DNA from: Clostridia bacterium
GTDB lineage: Bacteria > Bacillota > Clostridia > UBA1381 > UMGS1253
Direction: 5' to 3'
Length of the DNA: 64,000 bases
Assembly (NCBI GenBank): GCA_045578865.1
Contig: JAZNLB010000008.1
Span: 37,234-101,233, forward strand
Position numbers and translations under genes: made by a program. Below, piece after piece: positions 34,387-44,303 of this stretch. The notes beneath the pieces are model-generated. The model was not told the origin of the DNA. It did not search any database and worked only from the letters and a program-made list of their open reading frames with translations. Each line of letters starts with the position of its first letter. Position 1 is the stretch's first letter.

Positions 34387-35439
34387 TTATGATTTATTCA
34401 TTTTAATTAATTTTAGACGCAAATAGAACAAGTACATTATAAACGGCAAACCCAAATATCCGAAAAACGAATACAAAAAACGAACAATTTCGGTAAATTC
34501 AAGCATACAAATCGGCACTGCGGCGAGCATTAGCACGAATACCGCTCCCCGTGTAGTCATGTGGTATCTTGTTTTTAAAAAATCAAGCGCACCATATCCG
34601 CAACCCAAAGCTGTTGTGAGCACAGAAAACATTAACATGAATGAATATATCGCCGTATATGCTCTTCCGCTGCGCTCAACAATATCATAAAGCGGTATAT
34701 CACCGAGCATAATCTTGTTTTTGTAGATGCCGAGCACAAACCAAATGCAAATCGCCAATCCAGTAAGCATACCCGATGTTAATAAACAAGAAATTTTAAT
34801 TTCCTTTTCATTTTTGCAATAACTCCCCATAGAACAAAGCACAACCAATACAGACAAAAGATTATACGAAACATATACTCCCCCATCCGTTAAACTTGCA
34901 GCTGCTTTTTTATAATAATGCTCATAGGCAAATGTCTGAACATCCCGATATAAAATGCCGTGAACACATACAAGAAAAATACCTATGCAAATCAGCGGCG
35001 CAAGATATAAGTTTACCTTTGCTACCCCACATATATCGTTTAGCAAAACTATTGTGCATACAAAAAACAAGCAAAAAACGCCAACCATGCGCGGAATATG
35101 GAAGGATTGTAAAAACAAAGCTCCCGTTGCCGATGCCATCGCGCACAAACCGCAAAAGGAAAATGCCGCTACGCATGCCTCGATTAAATATTTGGCACAT
35201 GGAGAATGAATATAGTCTAAAAATTCATTAAAACCGTTAACGGAATTTCTGTGATTAAACAGCAAAACCGTTTCAAAAACCATATAAAACAAAATAAACA
35301 CAAATAAAAGTCCGACTGCGCCCCATTTCCCGTGCACAGAAAAGAAGGAAAAAATCTCCTGTCCAGTTGCAAATCCGGCGCCTATCACCGTTGCAACAAT
35401 TGTAGTAGACAACATGAATATATCTTTGAATTTTCTCAT
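34387..35439 (-). CDS. YkvI-family membrane transporter-like protein
   Basis: The N-terminus TIVATVIGAGFATGQEIFSFF is typical of the YkvI family. About 11 TM segments. ATG 35439 follows GGAGG. Confidence 0.7.
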   Translation of the reverse strand: MRKFKDIFMLSTTIVATVIGAGFATGQEIFSFFSVHGKWGAVGLLFVFILFYMVFETVLLFNHRNSVNGFNEFLDYIHSPCAKYLIEACVAAFSFCGLCAMASATGALFLQSFHIPRMVGVFCLFFVCTIVLLNDICGVAKVNLYLAPLICIGIFLVCVHGILYRDVQTFAYEHYYKKAAASLTDGGVYVSYNLLSVLVVLCSMGSYCKNEKEIKISCLLTSGMLTGLAICIWFVLGIYKNKIMLGDIPLYDIVERSGRAYTAIYSFMLMFSVLTTALGCGYGALDFLKTRYHMTTRGAVFVLMLAAVPICMLEFTEIVRFLYSFFGYLGLPFIMYLFYLRLKLIKMNKS

Positions 35440-35479
35440 AAATTTTCCTCCAAAATCCGCACACATAAAACACACAAAG

Positions 35480-35488
35480 CATACGATA
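35480..35488 (+). promoter_or_regulatory. Possible sigma-K-type -10 element (CATAnnnTA) ahead of dpaA
   Basis: CATACGATA lies 29 nt upstream of the dpaA ATG. B. subtilis spoVF is sigma-K dependent. The match is short, so support is weak. Confidence 0.3.
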
Positions 35489-35516
35489 TACCAAAACATA
35501 ACAAGGAGCGAAACCT

Positions 35517-39161: not shown

Positions 39162-39237
<76 letters not shown>

Positions 39238-39245
39238 ACACAAAA

Positions 39246-39276
39246 AAAGCACTTGCAAACGCAAGTGCTTTTTTTG
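39246..39276. terminator. Bidirectional hairpin terminator after tRNA-Thr
   Basis: AAAAAAAGCACTTGC-AAAC-GCAAGTGCTTTTTTT. Confidence 0.8.
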
Positions 39277-39285
39277 CGTTGCTTC

Positions 39286-39405
39286 CCTATGTACCACTTT
39301 TTCTTTCCCTTATTTTAATGTTTTTAACGCTTCGCTGAAGCGCTGGAAATGTACAACTTCTCGCGCACGCAAGAACTTAATTACATCGTTGACATCTGCA
39401 TCAAA
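39286..39405 (-). pseudogene. Truncated, frameshifted remnant of the last ~40 codons of a cotJC (Mn-catalase family) gene
   Basis: The minus strand reads DADVNDVIKFLRAREVVHFQRFSEAL. Intact cotJC at 43725-43850 reads DADVNDVIKFLRAREVVHFQRFGEAL. Across 26 aligned codons there are 14 nt differences, 12 of them synonymous third-position changes. A 2-nt indel then breaks the frame before the NKGKKKWYIG-coding tail. Confidence 0.85.
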
Positions 39406-39431
39406 AGAAGCAAATCAACAAAATTTAATTT

Positions 39432-39466
39432 AAAAATCCACGATAAATATTTATCGTGGATTTTTA
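39432..39466. terminator. Perfect palindromic hairpin, bidirectional terminator downstream of the GH105 operon
   Basis: AAAAATCCACGATAAATATTTATCGTGGATTTTT. Confidence 0.75.
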
Positions 39467-39488: not shown

Positions 39489-40556
39489 TTACTTATATTC
39501 GAAAAGCTCAATCTCTTCGATACCGTTTTTATATGCTTCAACAAGAGCAAACATAATACATCCGTAAGAATGAACTTCGTCCGTTTGAGGATATTTTTCG
39601 GTAATATAAGCTTTGGCCGTACCTTTTTCCTTTCCTTGTCCGGGGCACAGGCATCCCGGGCAGGACAGAACTGTCATATATTCTGTTGTAATACAGTATT
39701 TACCCAGGCCCTCAATGCCCTTTTTAAAGGCTTCCATATATTTTTCGTCCTTTAAAATTCCGCATCGTATACCTACGCCGATACCATAAAGAATAAGCCC
39801 TGTTCCGGTACATTCATACCATGCTAATTCTTCATTAAGAACCTGTCTCCACAGACCTCTTTCGGTCTGATGCTCCAACATAGAATCTGTATGATCTTTG
39901 TAAAGCTTTAATGCTTGTTCTCTGTGCGGAGAATCTTCAGGCAGATATTGAACAAGTTCGGTAATACCTAAATAACCCCAGCCATTTCCTCTTCCCCAAT
40001 AATCAGAAGAAACTCTTTCCGGATCTTCAAGGCAACCTCTTGACTGATGCAAAAGTCCGTTGCTCTTATCACGGAATAAATCGTATGCCTTAAAGCAAAG
40101 CTGCGCCGCATAATCAATATACCTCTGTTCTCCCAAAGCGAGTCCAGTGTAAAGCATATACGGAGCAATGAAAGCAATAATATCAATCCACACTCTTTCA
40201 TGATACTTATCATGCGAGATTATACCCTCTTTGCTGTGTGGTGAATTTATCGTAATTTCTGCATATTCACGAAGAAGCTCTGCTGTTTCAGGCATGTAAT
40301 CCTTCATGCACATCCACGCTTTTACCGGGCCGCCTACTTTATATGCTTGGAAGTGATAAAAGGGATGGTCAAAGTTGTCAGGATAAAGTTCAAGATACGC
40401 TTTGCATTTATTGATGAGCTCCTCATTTTTACCGACATCAGCTGCCATAGCGAGTCCATGATATGCTAAAAGTCCATAATAGGCGCGTATACTCTCATGT
40501 TTTTCCTCATAGCGATTAAAAAGTTTAACCGCAGTATCAAGTATATTTACTTTCAT
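39489..40556 (-). CDS. Unsaturated rhamnogalacturonyl/glucuronyl hydrolase (GH105/GH88)
   Basis: Family hallmarks VWIDIIAFIAPYM, DYWGRGNGWGYLG, YECTGTGLILYGIGVGIRCGIL and HSYGCIMFALVE. It has no signal peptide. Confidence 0.8.
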   Translation of the reverse strand: MKVNILDTAVKLFNRYEEKHESIRAYYGLLAYHGLAMAADVGKNEELINKCKAYLELYPDNFDHPFYHFQAYKVGGPVKAWMCMKDYMPETAELLREYAEITINSPHSKEGIISHDKYHERVWIDIIAFIAPYMLYTGLALGEQRYIDYAAQLCFKAYDLFRDKSNGLLHQSRGCLEDPERVSSDYWGRGNGWGYLGITELVQYLPEDSPHREQALKLYKDHTDSMLEHQTERGLWRQVLNEELAWYECTGTGLILYGIGVGIRCGILKDEKYMEAFKKGIEGLGKYCITTEYMTVLSCPGCLCPGQGKEKGTAKAYITEKYPQTDEVHSYGCIMFALVEAYKNGIEEIELFEYK

Positions 40557-41266
40557 TACGCTTCACCTTTCTTGTGTTTTAGATTGATTAGATGTTCCCC
40601 TGTATTGTGATCATATAAATTAATACAGTCATCCAGTATTTCTATTTCCACGCCGTCTGTACGATTCGGCGCTTCAGCCAGATACCCTCTTTGCGTTCCT
40701 TTAAGATGCCAAAAAGCAATCTGATCCAGCTTTTCTGATGACAATACATAACAGCTCATATGTTTTTTGCCAAAACCGTAAAGTCCGTCATACATTGCGT
40801 ATGTGATGTCACCGTTTTCTTTTATGGATGCAGGCATCATGAGACCAGTTTTATCTAGAATCGAGGTGCCGTCAAGGGCAGCGTCCATTCTAAAATGCTT
40901 AATTCCGCAATGATGATTGCGTATTACAAGTTTATTTTTATCTGCAACATTGCAAGATGCAGACAAGTCAAAATTCGCTACAGTAAAATCAGTATATACA
41001 CATACATCTTCTGCTGATTCAATGAAGTCTACAAAAAACACAATATTCTTTTCATCGGAAAAACAGATTCTTTTTGCAGATACCGTTTTGCTGCTGTTCT
41101 CATATACATACGAGGAAACCGATATTTCGGTTTCTTCGTATGTGTTTTTTATGAGTTTAAGCTGAGTCTCATAAGGCTGCCTGTCAGCAGTAACAAAACG
41201 CCACGGATTATGTATATCAGTATACAAAACTTCTTTGCCGTTAAATTTTACTGAATACTTTTCCAT
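40556..41266 (-). CDS. Hypothetical beta-rich protein (faintly heparinase II/III C-terminal-like)
   Basis: 236-aa ORF tightly coupled to both neighbours (1-nt overlap and 2-nt gap). I can name no diagnostic motif. Confidence 0.5.
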   Translation of the reverse strand: MEKYSVKFNGKEVLYTDIHNPWRFVTADRQPYETQLKLIKNTYEETEISVSSYVYENSSKTVSAKRICFSDEKNIVFFVDFIESAEDVCVYTDFTVANFDLSASCNVADKNKLVIRNHHCGIKHFRMDAALDGTSILDKTGLMMPASIKENGDITYAMYDGLYGFGKKHMSCYVLSSEKLDQIAFWHLKGTQRGYLAEAPNRTDGVEIEILDDCINLYDHNTGEHLINLKHKKGEA

Positions 41267-41268
41267 AA

Positions 41269-41961
41269 TTAAAATTTTCCAGCGCTTTCAAAGTAGATGT
41301 CGTGAATCTGAACCTTCGGGTTGGACTTGAGGACAAAGAGGATGATGTCAACAACATCTTCAGGTTGCATCAGTTTTGTTCTGTCAACCGCTCTTGTACC
41401 CCAGAAACCTGTATCCGCACCGCCCGGGTTTACTGTGGTAACACGAATATTCTTGCCGCCTACCTGGATACGAAGTCCTCTGGAAAGCATGTTTACTGCA
41501 GCCTTAGCTGTGCAGTATAAAGGTGCATTACCATTTGCATTTCTTGCAGCCATACTACCGATGTTTACGATAATTGCCGGTTCTGCAGCCTTGTTTGCAA
41601 AATACTTGCAGCAAAGGAATGTACCCTTAACATTAACATCCATCATAAGATCATATGCACTTTCCTCGGTCTCCGGAATCTGTCCCGGAATGGAAAGACC
41701 TGCAAGATTTGCAAGCGCATAGAATTCGCCGTGTTTTGCATAGGCTTCTTCAAAAAATGCCTTTACTTCATCTTCGTTTGTAACATCCAGCGCCTTAGCA
41801 AAAACATCACAAGAAAGTTCTTTTGCAAAATCCATTACTGCTTCTTCGTTCGAGCAGATAGAAAGCTTTGCGCCTTCTTCTGCAAGTGCCTTACAAAGAA
41901 TTCTGCCCATACCGCCGCTTGCGCCTGTGATGACTACATGTTTCCCGTTATAATTTACCAT
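41269..41961 (-). CDS. Short-chain dehydrogenase/reductase (classical SDR)
   Basis: TGASGGMG cofactor motif, NLAG, and catalytic S...YCTAK. Confidence 0.85.
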   Translation of the reverse strand: MVNYNGKHVVITGASGGMGRILCKALAEEGAKLSICSNEEAVMDFAKELSCDVFAKALDVTNEDEVKAFFEEAYAKHGEFYALANLAGLSIPGQIPETEESAYDLMMDVNVKGTFLCCKYFANKAAEPAIIVNIGSMAARNANGNAPLYCTAKAAVNMLSRGLRIQVGGKNIRVTTVNPGGADTGFWGTRAVDRTKLMQPEDVVDIILFVLKSNPKVQIHDIYFESAGKF

Positions 41962-41987
41962 TTTATTTTCCTCCTGAATTTATAATA

Positions 41988-42701
41988 TTAGAAATAACCG
42001 CCGTTATCAACAACTTCTGTAGGTGTCATACCGCTGTTGACCATATCCTTGATTTCAACTTCGTTGTCACGAATTTCTTCTGCACGAAGAAGTACCTCGT
42101 ATGCAATTTCTCTAGGAATTACAATACATCCGTCAATATCTCCGAGAACAACATCACCAGGAAATACCATTACCTTGCCCATTGTGATTGGCATTTGATA
42201 ACCGATTGTACGGAATCTGCCAAGCATACCATTCGAGCTTCTGAATTTACAGAAAACAGGAAAGTTCTGCTCAAGAACACGATTCGTATCACGAACACCG
42301 CCATCAACCATTGCGCCGCGGCACCCCTGCTTCTTAGCAGCCATTGTCATAATTTCGCCCCACTGTGCGGACTCGTCATCCTCGGAAGTATCCCATACGA
42401 TAACGCTGTCCTGCGGGATTGCTTCAAGCATTTTTGCACGCTCAATCATTTCGTTTTCAAGACTAAGATTCTTTGAACCCTTGATTGTGAAAACGATTCC
42501 GGCAACCTTCATTTCTTCACGCAGGGGAAGAATATTGTTGGGAAGCGTCTGATAAAGATACTGCATTTCTCTAAGAACATCATTAACCATAGGTGTTGTT
42601 ACACCCTCGTAACGGTCACAAAGCTCCTTTACGCTGATAGGAAACGGAGTATCTTTAATCTTTCCTCTCTCTTTTGTTAATTCTTCAAGATTCATATACA
42701 T
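41988..42701 (-). CDS. RraA-family protein (4-hydroxy-4-methyl-2-oxoglutarate aldolase / oxaloacetate decarboxylase-like)
   Basis: The core GEIMTMAAKKQGCRGAMVDGGVRD and PGDVVLGDIDGCIVIP are typical of the RraA/HMG-aldolase fold. An alternative start is at 42695. Confidence 0.7.
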   Translation of the reverse strand: MYMNLEELTKERGKIKDTPFPISVKELCDRYEGVTTPMVNDVLREMQYLYQTLPNNILPLREEMKVAGIVFTIKGSKNLSLENEMIERAKMLEAIPQDSVIVWDTSEDDESAQWGEIMTMAAKKQGCRGAMVDGGVRDTNRVLEQNFPVFCKFRSSNGMLGRFRTIGYQMPITMGKVMVFPGDVVLGDIDGCIVIPREIAYEVLLRAEEIRDNEVEIKDMVNSGMTPTEVVDNGGYF

Positions 42702-42850
42702 TCCATCCTTTCACAAAAACATTTGCAACAATATAATAACACAATATCATTCACAATTCAAATACATAAATAGCTTTTTGTTTGTATAAATCGCTCATAA
42801 TTGATTGACAATAAAATTCTAATATGCTATACTTTTTATGGGTGAAGTTC

Positions 42851-43633
42851 ATGAATAATATTGATTTTTTAATAACGAAAATAAACCGAGTAATCCACCG
42901 TAAACCAAACCCTAACTGGAGCGACGACAGACTTTTTTACGAAAGCGAATATAACATAGTTATTGTGTTGGACGGAAAAGCGAAATACATAATTAATTCC
43001 GAAGAAATCAATGTTAAAAAGAATGATATTGTAATTTTCCCTCCCGGAATTGTAAGAGCCGGTTGTTCCGATAAAATAAGTCCATGGGAATTTATTACAA
43101 TCAATTTTGATTTGGATCTGAATTGTGACGAAAAAGGTTTTTTTGACAAAGGCTACTTGCTATTTGAAAGCGCAGGGACAAGTACAAGAAGCAGATTTCT
43201 CGATATCGCTTATCTATGGGAGGGCAAAAGTCCCCTTTATGCAGTTAAATGCAGGAATTTAATATCGGATATTTTATACGAGCTAATCAGGAAATCTCTC
43301 CCATATAATAAAACGCCCCACGCAGATAAGCTTGAGGCTGCGCGCACATATATACAGGCAAATTTCAGAGAGAAAATAAGCATCGAAGACCTTGCCGAAA
43401 GAATGGGCCTGAGTCAGTCATATTTTCGCAAATTGTTTACAAAGGCATACAATCAATCTCCCCAGCAATATATCATAAACCTAAGAATAAACACAGCATA
43501 CGACCTTTTGATGTCAGGCGAAGTAAATGTAAGCGAAGCTGCTTCCCTAAGCGGTTTCGATGACATTTACTATTTCAGCACACTCTTTAAAAAACAAAGA
43601 GGGTTTTCCCCTTCTAAAGTCATTCATTCGTAG
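42851..43633 (+). CDS. AraC-family transcriptional regulator (cupin sensor plus 2x HTH)
   Basis: The C-terminal region is IEDLAERMGLSQSYFRKLFTKAY...AASLSGFDDIYYFSTLFKKQRGFSP. It is divergent from the GH105 operon. Confidence 0.88.
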   Translation: MNNIDFLITKINRVIHRKPNPNWSDDRLFYESEYNIVIVLDGKAKYIINSEEINVKKNDIVIFPPGIVRAGCSDKISPWEFITINFDLDLNCDEKGFFDKGYLLFESAGTSTRSRFLDIAYLWEGKSPLYAVKCRNLISDILYELIRKSLPYNKTPHADKLEAARTYIQANFREKISIEDLAERMGLSQSYFRKLFTKAYNQSPQQYIINLRINTAYDLLMSGEVNVSEAASLSGFDDIYYFSTLFKKQRGFSPSKVIHS

Positions 43634-43703: not shown

Positions 43704-43724
43704 GTGTCCATACAGACTTTTGTG

Positions 43725-44303
43725 TTATTTACCTATATACCACTTTTTCTTTCCCTTATTTTGTATATTATTTAATGCTTCACCGAAGCGTTGAAAATGC
43801 ACGACTTCGCGTGCGCGCAAAAACTTAATTACATCATTAACATCCGCATCATCGGAAAATCTCAAAATGTTATCGTATGTCGCTCTCGCTTTTTGTTCTG
43901 CCGCCAAATCCTCCGTTAAATCTGTAATCGGATCCGACGAAACAGCAAAGCTGATTGCGTTAAACGGGTATCCGGCAGAATCTACCGGATATACACCGCG
44001 TCCGTGATCAATGAAGTATTGCGCGAGTGGACTGTTTTCAATTTGCCCTGTTGTAGCATTTTTTGCAAGTTGACGCACCAATGTACCAACAATTTCCAGA
44101 TGCGCCAGTTCTTCTGTGCCGATGTCATTGAGCAGCGATTTGCTGATTTCGTCCGGCATGGAAAACCTTTGGGACAAATAGCGCATAGACGCACCGAGTT
44201 CACCATTTGGACCACCGTACTGACTTACAATAAAATTTGCTAATTTCGGGTTCGGCGTTTTAATTTTGACGGGATATTCTAAAAACTTTTGATATTGCCA
44301 CAT
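43725..44303 (-). CDS. cotJC: Spore coat protein CotJC (manganese catalase family)
   Basis: The sequence contains YGGPNGELGASMRYLSQRF and EELAHLEIV. It is preceded by cotJB and cotJA. Confidence 0.9.
   Translation of the reverse strand: MWQYQKFLEYPVKIKTPNPKLANFIVSQYGGPNGELGASMRYLSQRFSMPDEISKSLLNDIGTEELAHLEIVGTLVRQLAKNATTGQIENSPLAQYFIDHGRGVYPVDSAGYPFNAISFAVSSDPITDLTEDLAAEQKARATYDNILRFSDDADVNDVIKFLRAREVVHFQRFGEALNNIQNKGKKKWYIGK

Follow-up and report, generated by a model that had tools for sequence, protein, structure and literature searches.

How is an unsaturated uronate metabolized when the genes beside the hydrolase that would release it encode neither KduI nor DhuI? The question is raised by a five-gene cassette in a 64,000-nucleotide (nt) stretch of Clostridia bacterium DNA (GenBank assembly GCA_045578865.1, contig JAZNLB010000008.1), referred to below as the window. 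Unsaturated uronates are a common end product of the lyase breakdown of pectin, gum arabic, ulvan, alginate and glycosaminoglycans (GAGs). Uronate use by gut bacteria is now predicted from kduI/kduD or dhuI/dhuD, and a 2025 survey reported most genomes to lack such clusters (PMC12838403). Judged from its sequence, the cassette may be an AraC-controlled cytoplasmic module for oligosaccharides with a 4,5-unsaturated uronate at the non-reducing end, acquired as an island; our confidence in this reading is evenly balanced. If the isomerase is bypassed, the way in which pectin and GAG use is read from ruminant and human gut Clostridia genomes would change. A literature search returned no description of this cassette, and a search for GH105 together with RraA gave nothing useful.

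A recurrent five-gene cassette

Four genes on the reverse strand encode, in order of transcription, an RraA-fold enzyme (41988-42701, 237 aa as annotated), a short-chain dehydrogenase/reductase (SDR; 41269-41961, 230 aa), a beta-sandwich protein (40556-41266, 236 aa) and a GH105-type hydrolase (39489-40556, 355 aa). They face a divergent AraC-family regulator gene on the forward strand (42824-43633, 269 aa as annotated). An earlier interpretation, made from the letters alone and called here the sequence-only reading, had given the positions and families of these open reading frames (ORFs), which agree exactly with the ORF list and Pfam. Its description of four tightly coupled genes is also correct: 26 nt separate the RraA-fold and SDR genes, 2 nt separate the SDR and beta-sandwich genes, and the beta-sandwich and hydrolase genes overlap by 1 nt. 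This overlap reads TAATG and is preceded by AAAGGTGA; the hydrolase could be made in translational coupling with the beta-sandwich protein. The likely starts of the RraA-fold protein and the regulator are M3 (42695, giving 235 aa) and M10 (42851), and their homologues have 235 and 260 aa, respectively. The exact 237-aa and 269-aa sequences are absent from the protein collection.

The sequence-only reading had found no KduI or DhuI in the cassette, and the five proteins gave no match to either kind of family in Pfam (reported down to E <= 0.1) or NCBIfam. The same two databases revealed no gene for a cupin KduI/IolB-type or RpiB-type isomerase in the cassette, and none was noticed in the other cassette loci examined. 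No N-terminus resembles a signal peptide, as judged by reading, which agrees with the sequence-only reading.

Contigs encoding homologues of the 236-aa protein (numbered with the prefix L) were examined and scored with hidden Markov models (HMMs) built from the cassette proteins. The module was found in at least eight lineages with differing gene orders. Since the same gene set recurs in several orders under a divergent AraC gene, the cassette is a functional conserved module and more than a chance arrangement. The co-occurrence analysis thus extends the four-gene set across gut Clostridia and Paenibacillus loci. Orthologues of the regulator (470-509 bits, local HMM) lie divergently beside the operon in related loci, and every cassette variant has an SDR orthologue, L021 (316 bits) and Paenibacillus cymbidii (250 bits) among them. 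A DNA pattern search of metagenomes matched only two short contigs, both of which carry the cassette.

The variants differ in gene order and in their additional enzymes. In Oscillospiraceae-type metagenome-assembled genomes (MAGs) and ruminant-gut metagenomes, the AraC gene is divergent to RraA-SDR-sandwich-GH105, which is always followed by a gene for a 390-aa Fe-ADH_2 protein most like glycerol-1-phosphate (G1P) dehydrogenase (166 bits, under the cut-off). In the Lachnospiraceae MAGs L012 and L013, the order is sandwich-RraA-SDR-GH105, followed by genes for a 2-hydroxyacid dehydrogenase, a zinc-type alcohol dehydrogenase (Zn-ADH) and a second SDR. In L016, the sandwich gene is coupled to a gene for a 637-aa heparinase II/III-like protein, and RraA-SDR-GH105 with the same three dehydrogenase genes lies across the AraC gene. 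In L014, L020 and L021, the sandwich gene follows the leading GH105 gene and overlaps the end of it; L021 additionally carries the orthologous SDR, a PD40-type propeller of ~400 aa and a hexapeptide acetyltransferase. Relatives of the window cassette carry at least one extra dehydrogenase gene, which the window copy lacks.

Paenibacillus cymbidii (L025; GCA_004764705.1, contig SHLX01000010.1, 240-261 kb) is the only cultured carrier found with the whole set, and makes the cassette directly testable. Its locus encodes a propeller and an acetyltransferase, the GH105-like enzyme, a 360-aa Hepar_II_III_C protein, AraC, an RraA-like protein and the SDR, together with a DUF3502 solute-binding protein, a hybrid AraC regulator and two ATP-binding cassette (ABC) permeases. 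The earlier expectation that the transporter lies outside the cassette is supported, with this ABC importer beside the module in P. cymbidii.

A GH105-type hydrolase and its beta-sandwich neighbour

The hydrolase matches Pfam PF07470 (Glyco_hydro_88), a profile common to GH88 and GH105, over residues 26-343 with 138.6 bits (cut-off 26.6). Its AlphaFold2 (AF2) model is an (alpha/alpha)6 barrel with a predicted local distance difference test score (pLDDT) of 94.6 and a predicted template-modelling score (pTM) of 0.94. In a Foldseek search, YteR is the best match of the model (2gh4/1nc5, template-modelling (TM) score 0.79-0.80), followed by the GH105 structures 3qwt, 4wu0 and 3pmm, and the GH88 unsaturated glucuronyl hydrolase (UGL) ranks lower (TM 0.6-0.69). 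A phmmer alignment to 1nc5 equates D125 of the hydrolase with D143 of YteR, and W187, R189 and W193 with W211, R213 and W217. From the YteR literature, we take D143 to be the catalytic Asp and the other three residues to form the -1 subsite. All four are invariant across 39 homologues of the hydrolase clade. As modelled, the hydrolase is structurally nearest to YteR-type GH105 enzymes, with the catalytic Asp and the -1 subsite kept. The GH105 assignment of the sequence-only reading is therefore borne out by the PF07470 match, the YteR-like fold and the conserved active-site residues, and the enzyme is predicted from its sequence to cleave 4,5-unsaturated uronides.

The cassette resembles the YteR/YesR systems, in which a GH105 enzyme acts with KduI, KduD, KdgK and KdgA, in fold (TM 0.8), catalytic Asp, W/R/W subsite, cytoplasmic location, AraC-type control and, in Paenibacillus, an LplABC-type ABC importer (with the DUF3502 binding protein) beside the module. 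In contrast to these systems, the cassette lacks KduI and KduD and has an RraA-fold enzyme instead, and its hydrolase is only ~20% identical, has a CPGCLCPG motif of its own and is accompanied by an obligatory-looking beta-sandwich partner gene. The hydrolase clade comprises 382 clusters at E <= 1e-10, Paenibacillus and Cohnella among them. The motif is near-invariant in this clade (residues 299-306, with C299, C302 and C304) and absent from YteR; it may be a metal or disulfide site.

The 236-aa protein has no match in Pfam, in NCBIfam or, by sequence, in the PDB, and a PDB search with a 38-sequence profile of the family gave no match either. Exact look-ups found no record of the window's beta-sandwich protein or of its Cohnella homologue. 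The family is very rare: a close-range search of 5.8 billion proteins gave only 13 clusters, and a profile search of 1.84 billion gave 66 representatives. Its profile reaches the last ~200 residues of 650-690-aa proteins carrying PF07940 (Hepar_II_III_C; PL12/15/17/21); the 236-aa protein itself has no direct PF07940 match, and the link runs through these longer proteins. Structure prediction for 40556-41266, which had been suggested as a check, was run with AF2 and gave an all-beta sandwich (pLDDT 81.7) resembling the C-terminal domains of polysaccharide lyase (PL) families 15, 12 and 17. The Foldseek matches are PL15 Atu3025 (3a0o/3afl, E 1e-6, query TM score (TMq) 0.52), PL12 HepC/heparinase III (4mmh/4fnv/5jmd) and PL17 (7bm6/4ojz). 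By profile and predicted fold, the protein is a truncated, stand-alone form distantly related to the beta-sandwich at the C-terminus of heparinase II/III-type lyases. The sequence-only reading was right in calling it beta-rich; its description as a protein of unknown family is superseded by this relationship to Hepar_II_III_C.

In an alignment, the 236-aa form covers residues ~170-360 of its 360-aa homologue in P. cymbidii. Upstream of the region covered, that homologue has an HCHED...FVDPG segment, the presumed counterpart of the catalytic His and the metal site in heparinase II and Alg17c. A covalently attached (alpha/alpha) toroid is absent from the 236-aa protein. It is unlikely that the short form is a lyase on its own.

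The gene for the beta-sandwich protein adjoins or overlaps the GH105-like gene in most lineages, on its upstream side in the window and L001-L011 and on its downstream side in L014, L020 and L021. In P. cymbidii, the 360-aa version, with a true PF07940 match, occupies the same place beside the GH105-like gene. Because the two genes steadily adjoin in both orders and often overlap, the beta-sandwich protein is probably the hydrolase's partner, acting as a lid or as a subunit that sets specificity. The earlier suggestion that it replaces the isomerase is not supported, as it is a lyase-type beta-sandwich travelling with the GH105-like gene. A KdgF-like or KduI-like enzyme was likewise considered and rejected: the protein has no cupin features, and its gene tracks the GH gene and not the SDR gene. 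We know of no RraA-fold or Hepar_II_III_C protein that is an isomerase.

Together, the 236-aa protein and the helical barrel encoded next door would recreate the barrel-plus-sandwich layout of PL15 Atu3025, PL17 Alg17c and PL12 heparinase III. Unlike in these lyases, the layout is divided between two polypeptides, and the barrel is of the GH105 type and not a lyase toroid. If the cassette bypasses the isomerase as proposed below, a function would be assigned to a very rare orphan protein family, and the pair would be a natural case of a glycoside hydrolase recruiting a lyase domain as a separate subunit.

Proposed fate of the released uronate

The RraA-fold protein matches PF03737 with 105.1 bits (cut-off 24.5). 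In a BLASTP comparison it is 36% identical to FlDet of Flavobacterium sp. UMI-01 over 135 aa (E 1e-13), and FlDet is, by sequence, its closest characterised relative. Its best NCBIfam match is NF006093, a subfamily of which FlDet is a member with 341 bits. The metal/catalytic motif of HMG/CHA aldolase (named for 4-hydroxy-4-methyl-2-oxoglutarate and 4-carboxy-4-hydroxy-2-oxoadipate) is reportedly D-X20-R-D (D102, R123, D124), as described by Wang and colleagues in 2010 and by Mazurkewich and colleagues in 2014. An alignment to 3noj shows that the R-D dyad is kept (GGVRD) and that the motif reads E-X20-R-D. We tentatively take the protein to be a metal-dependent C-C lyase or decarboxylase with a keto-deoxy acid as its substrate. 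Its closest solved structure is PDB 5ir2 (E 2e-67), which was deposited as "Cellulase", yet has the RraA/aldolase fold; no paper on 5IR2 was found, and a functional screen is the probable origin of the name. In P. cymbidii, the RraA-like gene (L025 13157-13878) is split by a frameshift into ORFs of 62 and 186 aa, and is either a pseudogene or an assembly error.

The SDR matches adh_short in Pfam with 144.6 bits, and TGASGGMG and YCTAK (Y-x3-K) are readable in its sequence. [quoted passage not shown]

A precedent for an isomerase-free use of these two families exists in Flavobacterium sp. UMI-01. There, the SDR FlRed oxidises alginate-derived 4-deoxy-5-keto-uronate to 2-keto-3-deoxy-glucarate, which FlDet, a 237-aa enzyme of the RraA family, turns into alpha-ketoglutaric semialdehyde (PMC8563752, Nishiyama et al. 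2021). Like the FlRed-FlDet-FlDeg system, the cassette would use first an SDR and then a 237-aa RraA-fold enzyme, and no isomerase, to process a lyase-derived 4-deoxy-5-keto-uronate. The two differ in several respects: the Flavobacterium substrate is the L-erythro epimer from alginate, and its genes are scattered, whereas the cassette is one operon; Flavobacterium has the aldehyde dehydrogenase FlDeg, which no cassette locus encodes; and the host of the window is an anaerobic spore-former, with a GH105-like hydrolase and not an exo-lyase as the upstream enzyme.

With this precedent, the isomerase-free route suggested by the sequence-only reading is plausible by analogy, leaving aside its idea of the 236-aa protein as the isomerase. 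In the model we propose, an imported oligosaccharide capped by an unsaturated uronate would be cleaved by the YteR-like GH105 enzyme together with its sandwich partner. [quoted passage not shown] Most likely, the SDR would oxidise DHU to 5-keto-4-deoxy-glucarate, as FlRed does with the alginate-derived epimer. The RraA-fold enzyme would then split this acid into pyruvate and tartronate semialdehyde, which we favour, or would dehydrate and decarboxylate it to 2,5-dioxopentanoate, as FlDet does. The extra dehydrogenase of related loci, either the G1P-dehydrogenase-like iron-type alcohol dehydrogenase (Fe-ADH) or the 2-hydroxyacid dehydrogenase with the Zn-ADH, would complete the route. In this model, four elements are inferred: the substrate, the pairing of hydrolase and beta-sandwich protein in a complex, the direction in which the SDR works, and the reaction of the RraA-fold enzyme.

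Oxidation followed by C-C cleavage is favoured because the nearest characterised RraA-fold relative acts on that acid, because no locus encodes an aldehyde dehydrogenase of the FlDeg type, and because two unrelated lineages carry accessory enzymes of the type that reduces C3 keto acids, so that the route would be redox-neutral in an anaerobe. These accessory enzymes belong to families acting on C3 keto or hydroxy acids and polyols, and thus fit pyruvate and a C3 compound as the products. A functional likeness can be drawn to GarL/GarR of E. coli and GaaC/GaaD of fungi, in which a C6 keto-deoxy acid gives pyruvate and a C3 aldehyde that is then reduced by a dehydrogenase: GarL is the 5-keto-4-deoxy-glucarate aldolase and GarR the tartronate semialdehyde reductase, and GaaC is the 2-keto-3-deoxy-L-galactonate aldolase and GaaD the L-glyceraldehyde reductase. 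However, GarL is of the HpcH/HpaI type and GaaC of the dihydrodipicolinate synthase (DHDPS) type, and neither is homologous to the RraA-fold enzyme of the cassette.

If true, the route would be a third way, besides KduI/KduD and DhuI/DhuD, for unsaturated uronates derived from pectin, gums or GAGs. The RraA fold would gain a second sugar-acid role after FlDet and, in the case of an aldolase, a new activity. The complete scheme, in which a two-subunit split barrel-plus-sandwich enzyme feeds a redox-neutral, isomerase- and kinase-free route of SDR oxidation, RraA-fold aldol cleavage and reduction of the semialdehyde to glycerate by an accessory dehydrogenase in anaerobic Firmicutes, is put forward tentatively, and its probability as a whole is low.

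One alternative follows the fungal pathway and runs in the reductive direction: DHU would be reduced by the SDR at its C1 aldehyde, giving 2-keto-3-deoxy-L-galactonate, from which the RraA-fold enzyme, as a class II pyruvate aldolase, would form pyruvate and L-glyceraldehyde, and the accessory Fe-ADH or Zn-ADH would reduce the L-glyceraldehyde to glycerol. The stereochemistry, derived from the fungal GaaA-D pathway, works on paper, the retained R-D dyad is that of the HMG/CHA pyruvate aldolase, and genes of the alcohol dehydrogenase type follow the cassette in relatives. G1P-dehydrogenase-like Fe-ADH enzymes act on C2 ketones rather than aldehydes, which does not suit the last step, and the window copy has no L-glyceraldehyde reductase. 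DEH reductases are SDRs, and FlRed kinetically prefers the reductive direction, according to PMC8563752. Against this stand the use of the oxidised glucarate form, not a hexonate, by the nearest characterised RraA-fold relative and a cost of two NAD(P)H per uronate. We consider the reductive route unlikely.

Several observations weigh against the reading of the cassette as an unsaturated-uronate module with an oxidative route. On the side of the catabolic enzymes, the NF006093 match of the RraA-fold protein (117.8 bits) is under the cut-off of 208, a Glu takes the place of the aldolase Asp102, the best matches of the SDR are generic SDRs at about 1e-23, and the FlDeg-type aldehyde dehydrogenase of the precedent is missing from every cassette locus examined. 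On the side of the hydrolase, the clade is ~20% identical to characterised enzymes, its only NCBIfam match is a "beta-galactosidase BglB" model (59 bits, cut-off 420; a literature search on this model gave nothing useful), and the same barrel fold is used by the PL27 lyase 5noa (Foldseek rank 7; phmmer E 2.6e-9). The 236-aa form is without the first ~110 residues of the lyase domain, including the H-x-H...D segment. One Paenibacillus has the GH105-like gene without the beta-sandwich gene, and in L018/L019 (4526-5200) the beta-sandwich gene follows rpsU and yqeY and lies beside a GT4 glycosyltransferase gene, without a GH105-like gene in the vicinity; the beta-sandwich family is thus not tied to the hydrolase in every case. 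Finally, the 64-kb window contains no transporter, no lyase and no terminal dehydrogenase for the module.

A further alternative is another substrate. The barrel and the sandwich could form a split PL27-like or heparinase-like lyase, or a hydrolase of a different glycoside, and the SDR and RraA-fold enzyme would then process another sugar acid. PL27 L-rhamnose-alpha-1,4-D-glucuronate lyase (BACCELL_00875, 5noa) has a GH105-like (alpha/alpha)6 barrel and is described with a beta-sandwich domain, the partner protein derives from lyases, and the hydrolase clade, with its own Cys motif, is far from characterised GH105 enzymes. The weak match to the beta-galactosidase model and the hexapeptide acetyltransferase and propeller of variant cassettes point the same way. 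However, the PL27 enzyme is a lyase in one chain, whereas the window protein is nearer to YteR-type hydrolases, its best matches by both sequence and fold, and keeps the hydrolase Asp; there is no variation in this Asp or in the residues by which the unsaturated uronate is held, and the short beta-sandwich form is without the H-x-H...D segment of the lyase domain. Even for a uronate lyase, the logic of downstream DHU catabolism would stay the same. Another substrate is quite unlikely in our view.

Island borders, neighbouring genes and control sites

The preferred reading, a module for unsaturated uronates, includes its acquisition as an island, which is suggested by the borders of the cassette. 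The 3' end of an intact cotJC gene (43725-44303) forms a proximal direct repeat at 43718-43851 on the reverse strand, and a relic of the same 3' end forms a distal repeat of 132 nt at 39272-39403, also on the reverse strand, which is 83-89% identical to the proximal copy. The relic translates to DADVNDVIKFLRAREVVHFQRF..., with a premature stop; the intact product matches Mn_catalase with 182.6 bits, and CotJB is encoded upstream. A tRNA-Thr gene (39162-39237) and a shared terminator hairpin lie beside the relic. Since the cotJC 3'-end repeats bracket the cassette and its five genes exactly fill the space between them, the sequence suggests a 4.3-kb island gained horizontally, apparently by homologous recombination, from a relative with the cassette downstream of cotJC.

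An island of this kind could also be an incomplete passenger, cut off before the terminal dehydrogenase and possibly non-functional in this genome. The repeats beside a tRNA, the absence of the Fe-ADH gene found after the GH gene in the closest relatives, and the lack of a transporter or lyase in the window would fit such a fate. On the other hand, all five ORFs are intact, the catalytic residues, ribosome-binding site, promoter-like site, operator block and terminator are present, the G+C content of the cassette equals that of its flanks, and other parts of the genome may encode what is missing. We regard such a passenger as very unlikely.

[quoted passage not shown] They are separated from the cassette by dpaA/dpaB, a DD-carboxypeptidase gene, a polysaccharide deacetylase gene and the tRNA-Thr gene, and accompany the cassette in none of the other loci examined. 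Their presence is thus confirmed and their relevance is not: kdgK-eda were rejected as part of the unit for want of synteny, and are irrelevant to the conserved module. A hidden canonical pathway, in which the SDR would be of the KduD/DhuD type, the beta-sandwich or RraA-fold protein would isomerise DHU, and 2-keto-3-deoxygluconate (KDG) would pass to KdgK and Eda, has in its favour these neighbours and the fact that KduI and DhuI are themselves non-homologous and isofunctional (PMC12838403), so that a third type of isomerase is conceivable, but is most improbable given the missing synteny, a beta-sandwich gene that tracks the GH gene, an SDR with no specific KduD or DhuD match, the lack of any known isomerase in either protein family, and the extra dehydrogenases of relatives that it leaves without a role.

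Directly upstream of eda-kdgK, on the same (reverse) strand, a gene at 34387-35499 encodes a 370-aa multi-pass membrane protein with no Pfam match, which may be the transporter of the eda-kdgK operon. The remainder of the window carries housekeeping and sporulation genes and one GH3 gene.

The regulator combines a cupin-type sensor (AraC_binding, 27.3 bits) with two helix-turn-helix (HTH) motifs (HTH_AraC in two stretches; HTH_18, 64 bits) in Pfam. An alignment of seven AraC/operon intergenic regions (those of the window, L001, L004, L007, L012, L013 and L016) revealed a conserved block of ~40 bp at 42758-42799, with the invariant run GCGA..TATA.AAA..A.AA.C..TTT.T..ATT. The block is kept although the beta-sandwich proteins encoded in these loci are only 32-61% identical to that of the window, whose copy holds ATTTATACA and ATTTATGTA, 21 bp apart. 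Judged from this conservation, the block is probably the AraC operator, abutting the operon promoter. A promoter-like site lies at 42733-42761 on the reverse strand (TTGAAT and TATTAT separated by 17 nt, plus the TG of an extended -10), identified by consensus match only. At the other end of the operon, a terminator-like hairpin with a 16-pair stem (39431-39466, reverse strand) starts 23 nt past the stop codon of the GH gene.

Other genes beside the module in related loci could produce unsaturated uronates. Possible producers are the 637-aa heparinase II/III-like protein of L016 and the PD40-type propellers of L021, L022 and L025. Proteins of ~400-435 aa with weak PD40 repeats are encoded beside the GH105-like gene in L021 (4711-6521), L022 (372-2272), L025 (7838-9666) and L014 (1472-2677), usually accompanied by a hexapeptide acetyltransferase. 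By analogy with PL22, PL24, PL25 and PL42, these propellers could be lyases. A role as sugar transporter was considered for the DUF1538 genes that lie downstream in some loci, and was rejected because their matches are to Ump-type cation/proton antiporters. In L004 (4172-7657), just upstream of the cassette, a 676-aa beta-helix protein with a weak match to a GH141 insertion domain and a BNR-repeat protein are encoded with an AraC gene of their own, which hints at a link between the cassette and complex pectin.

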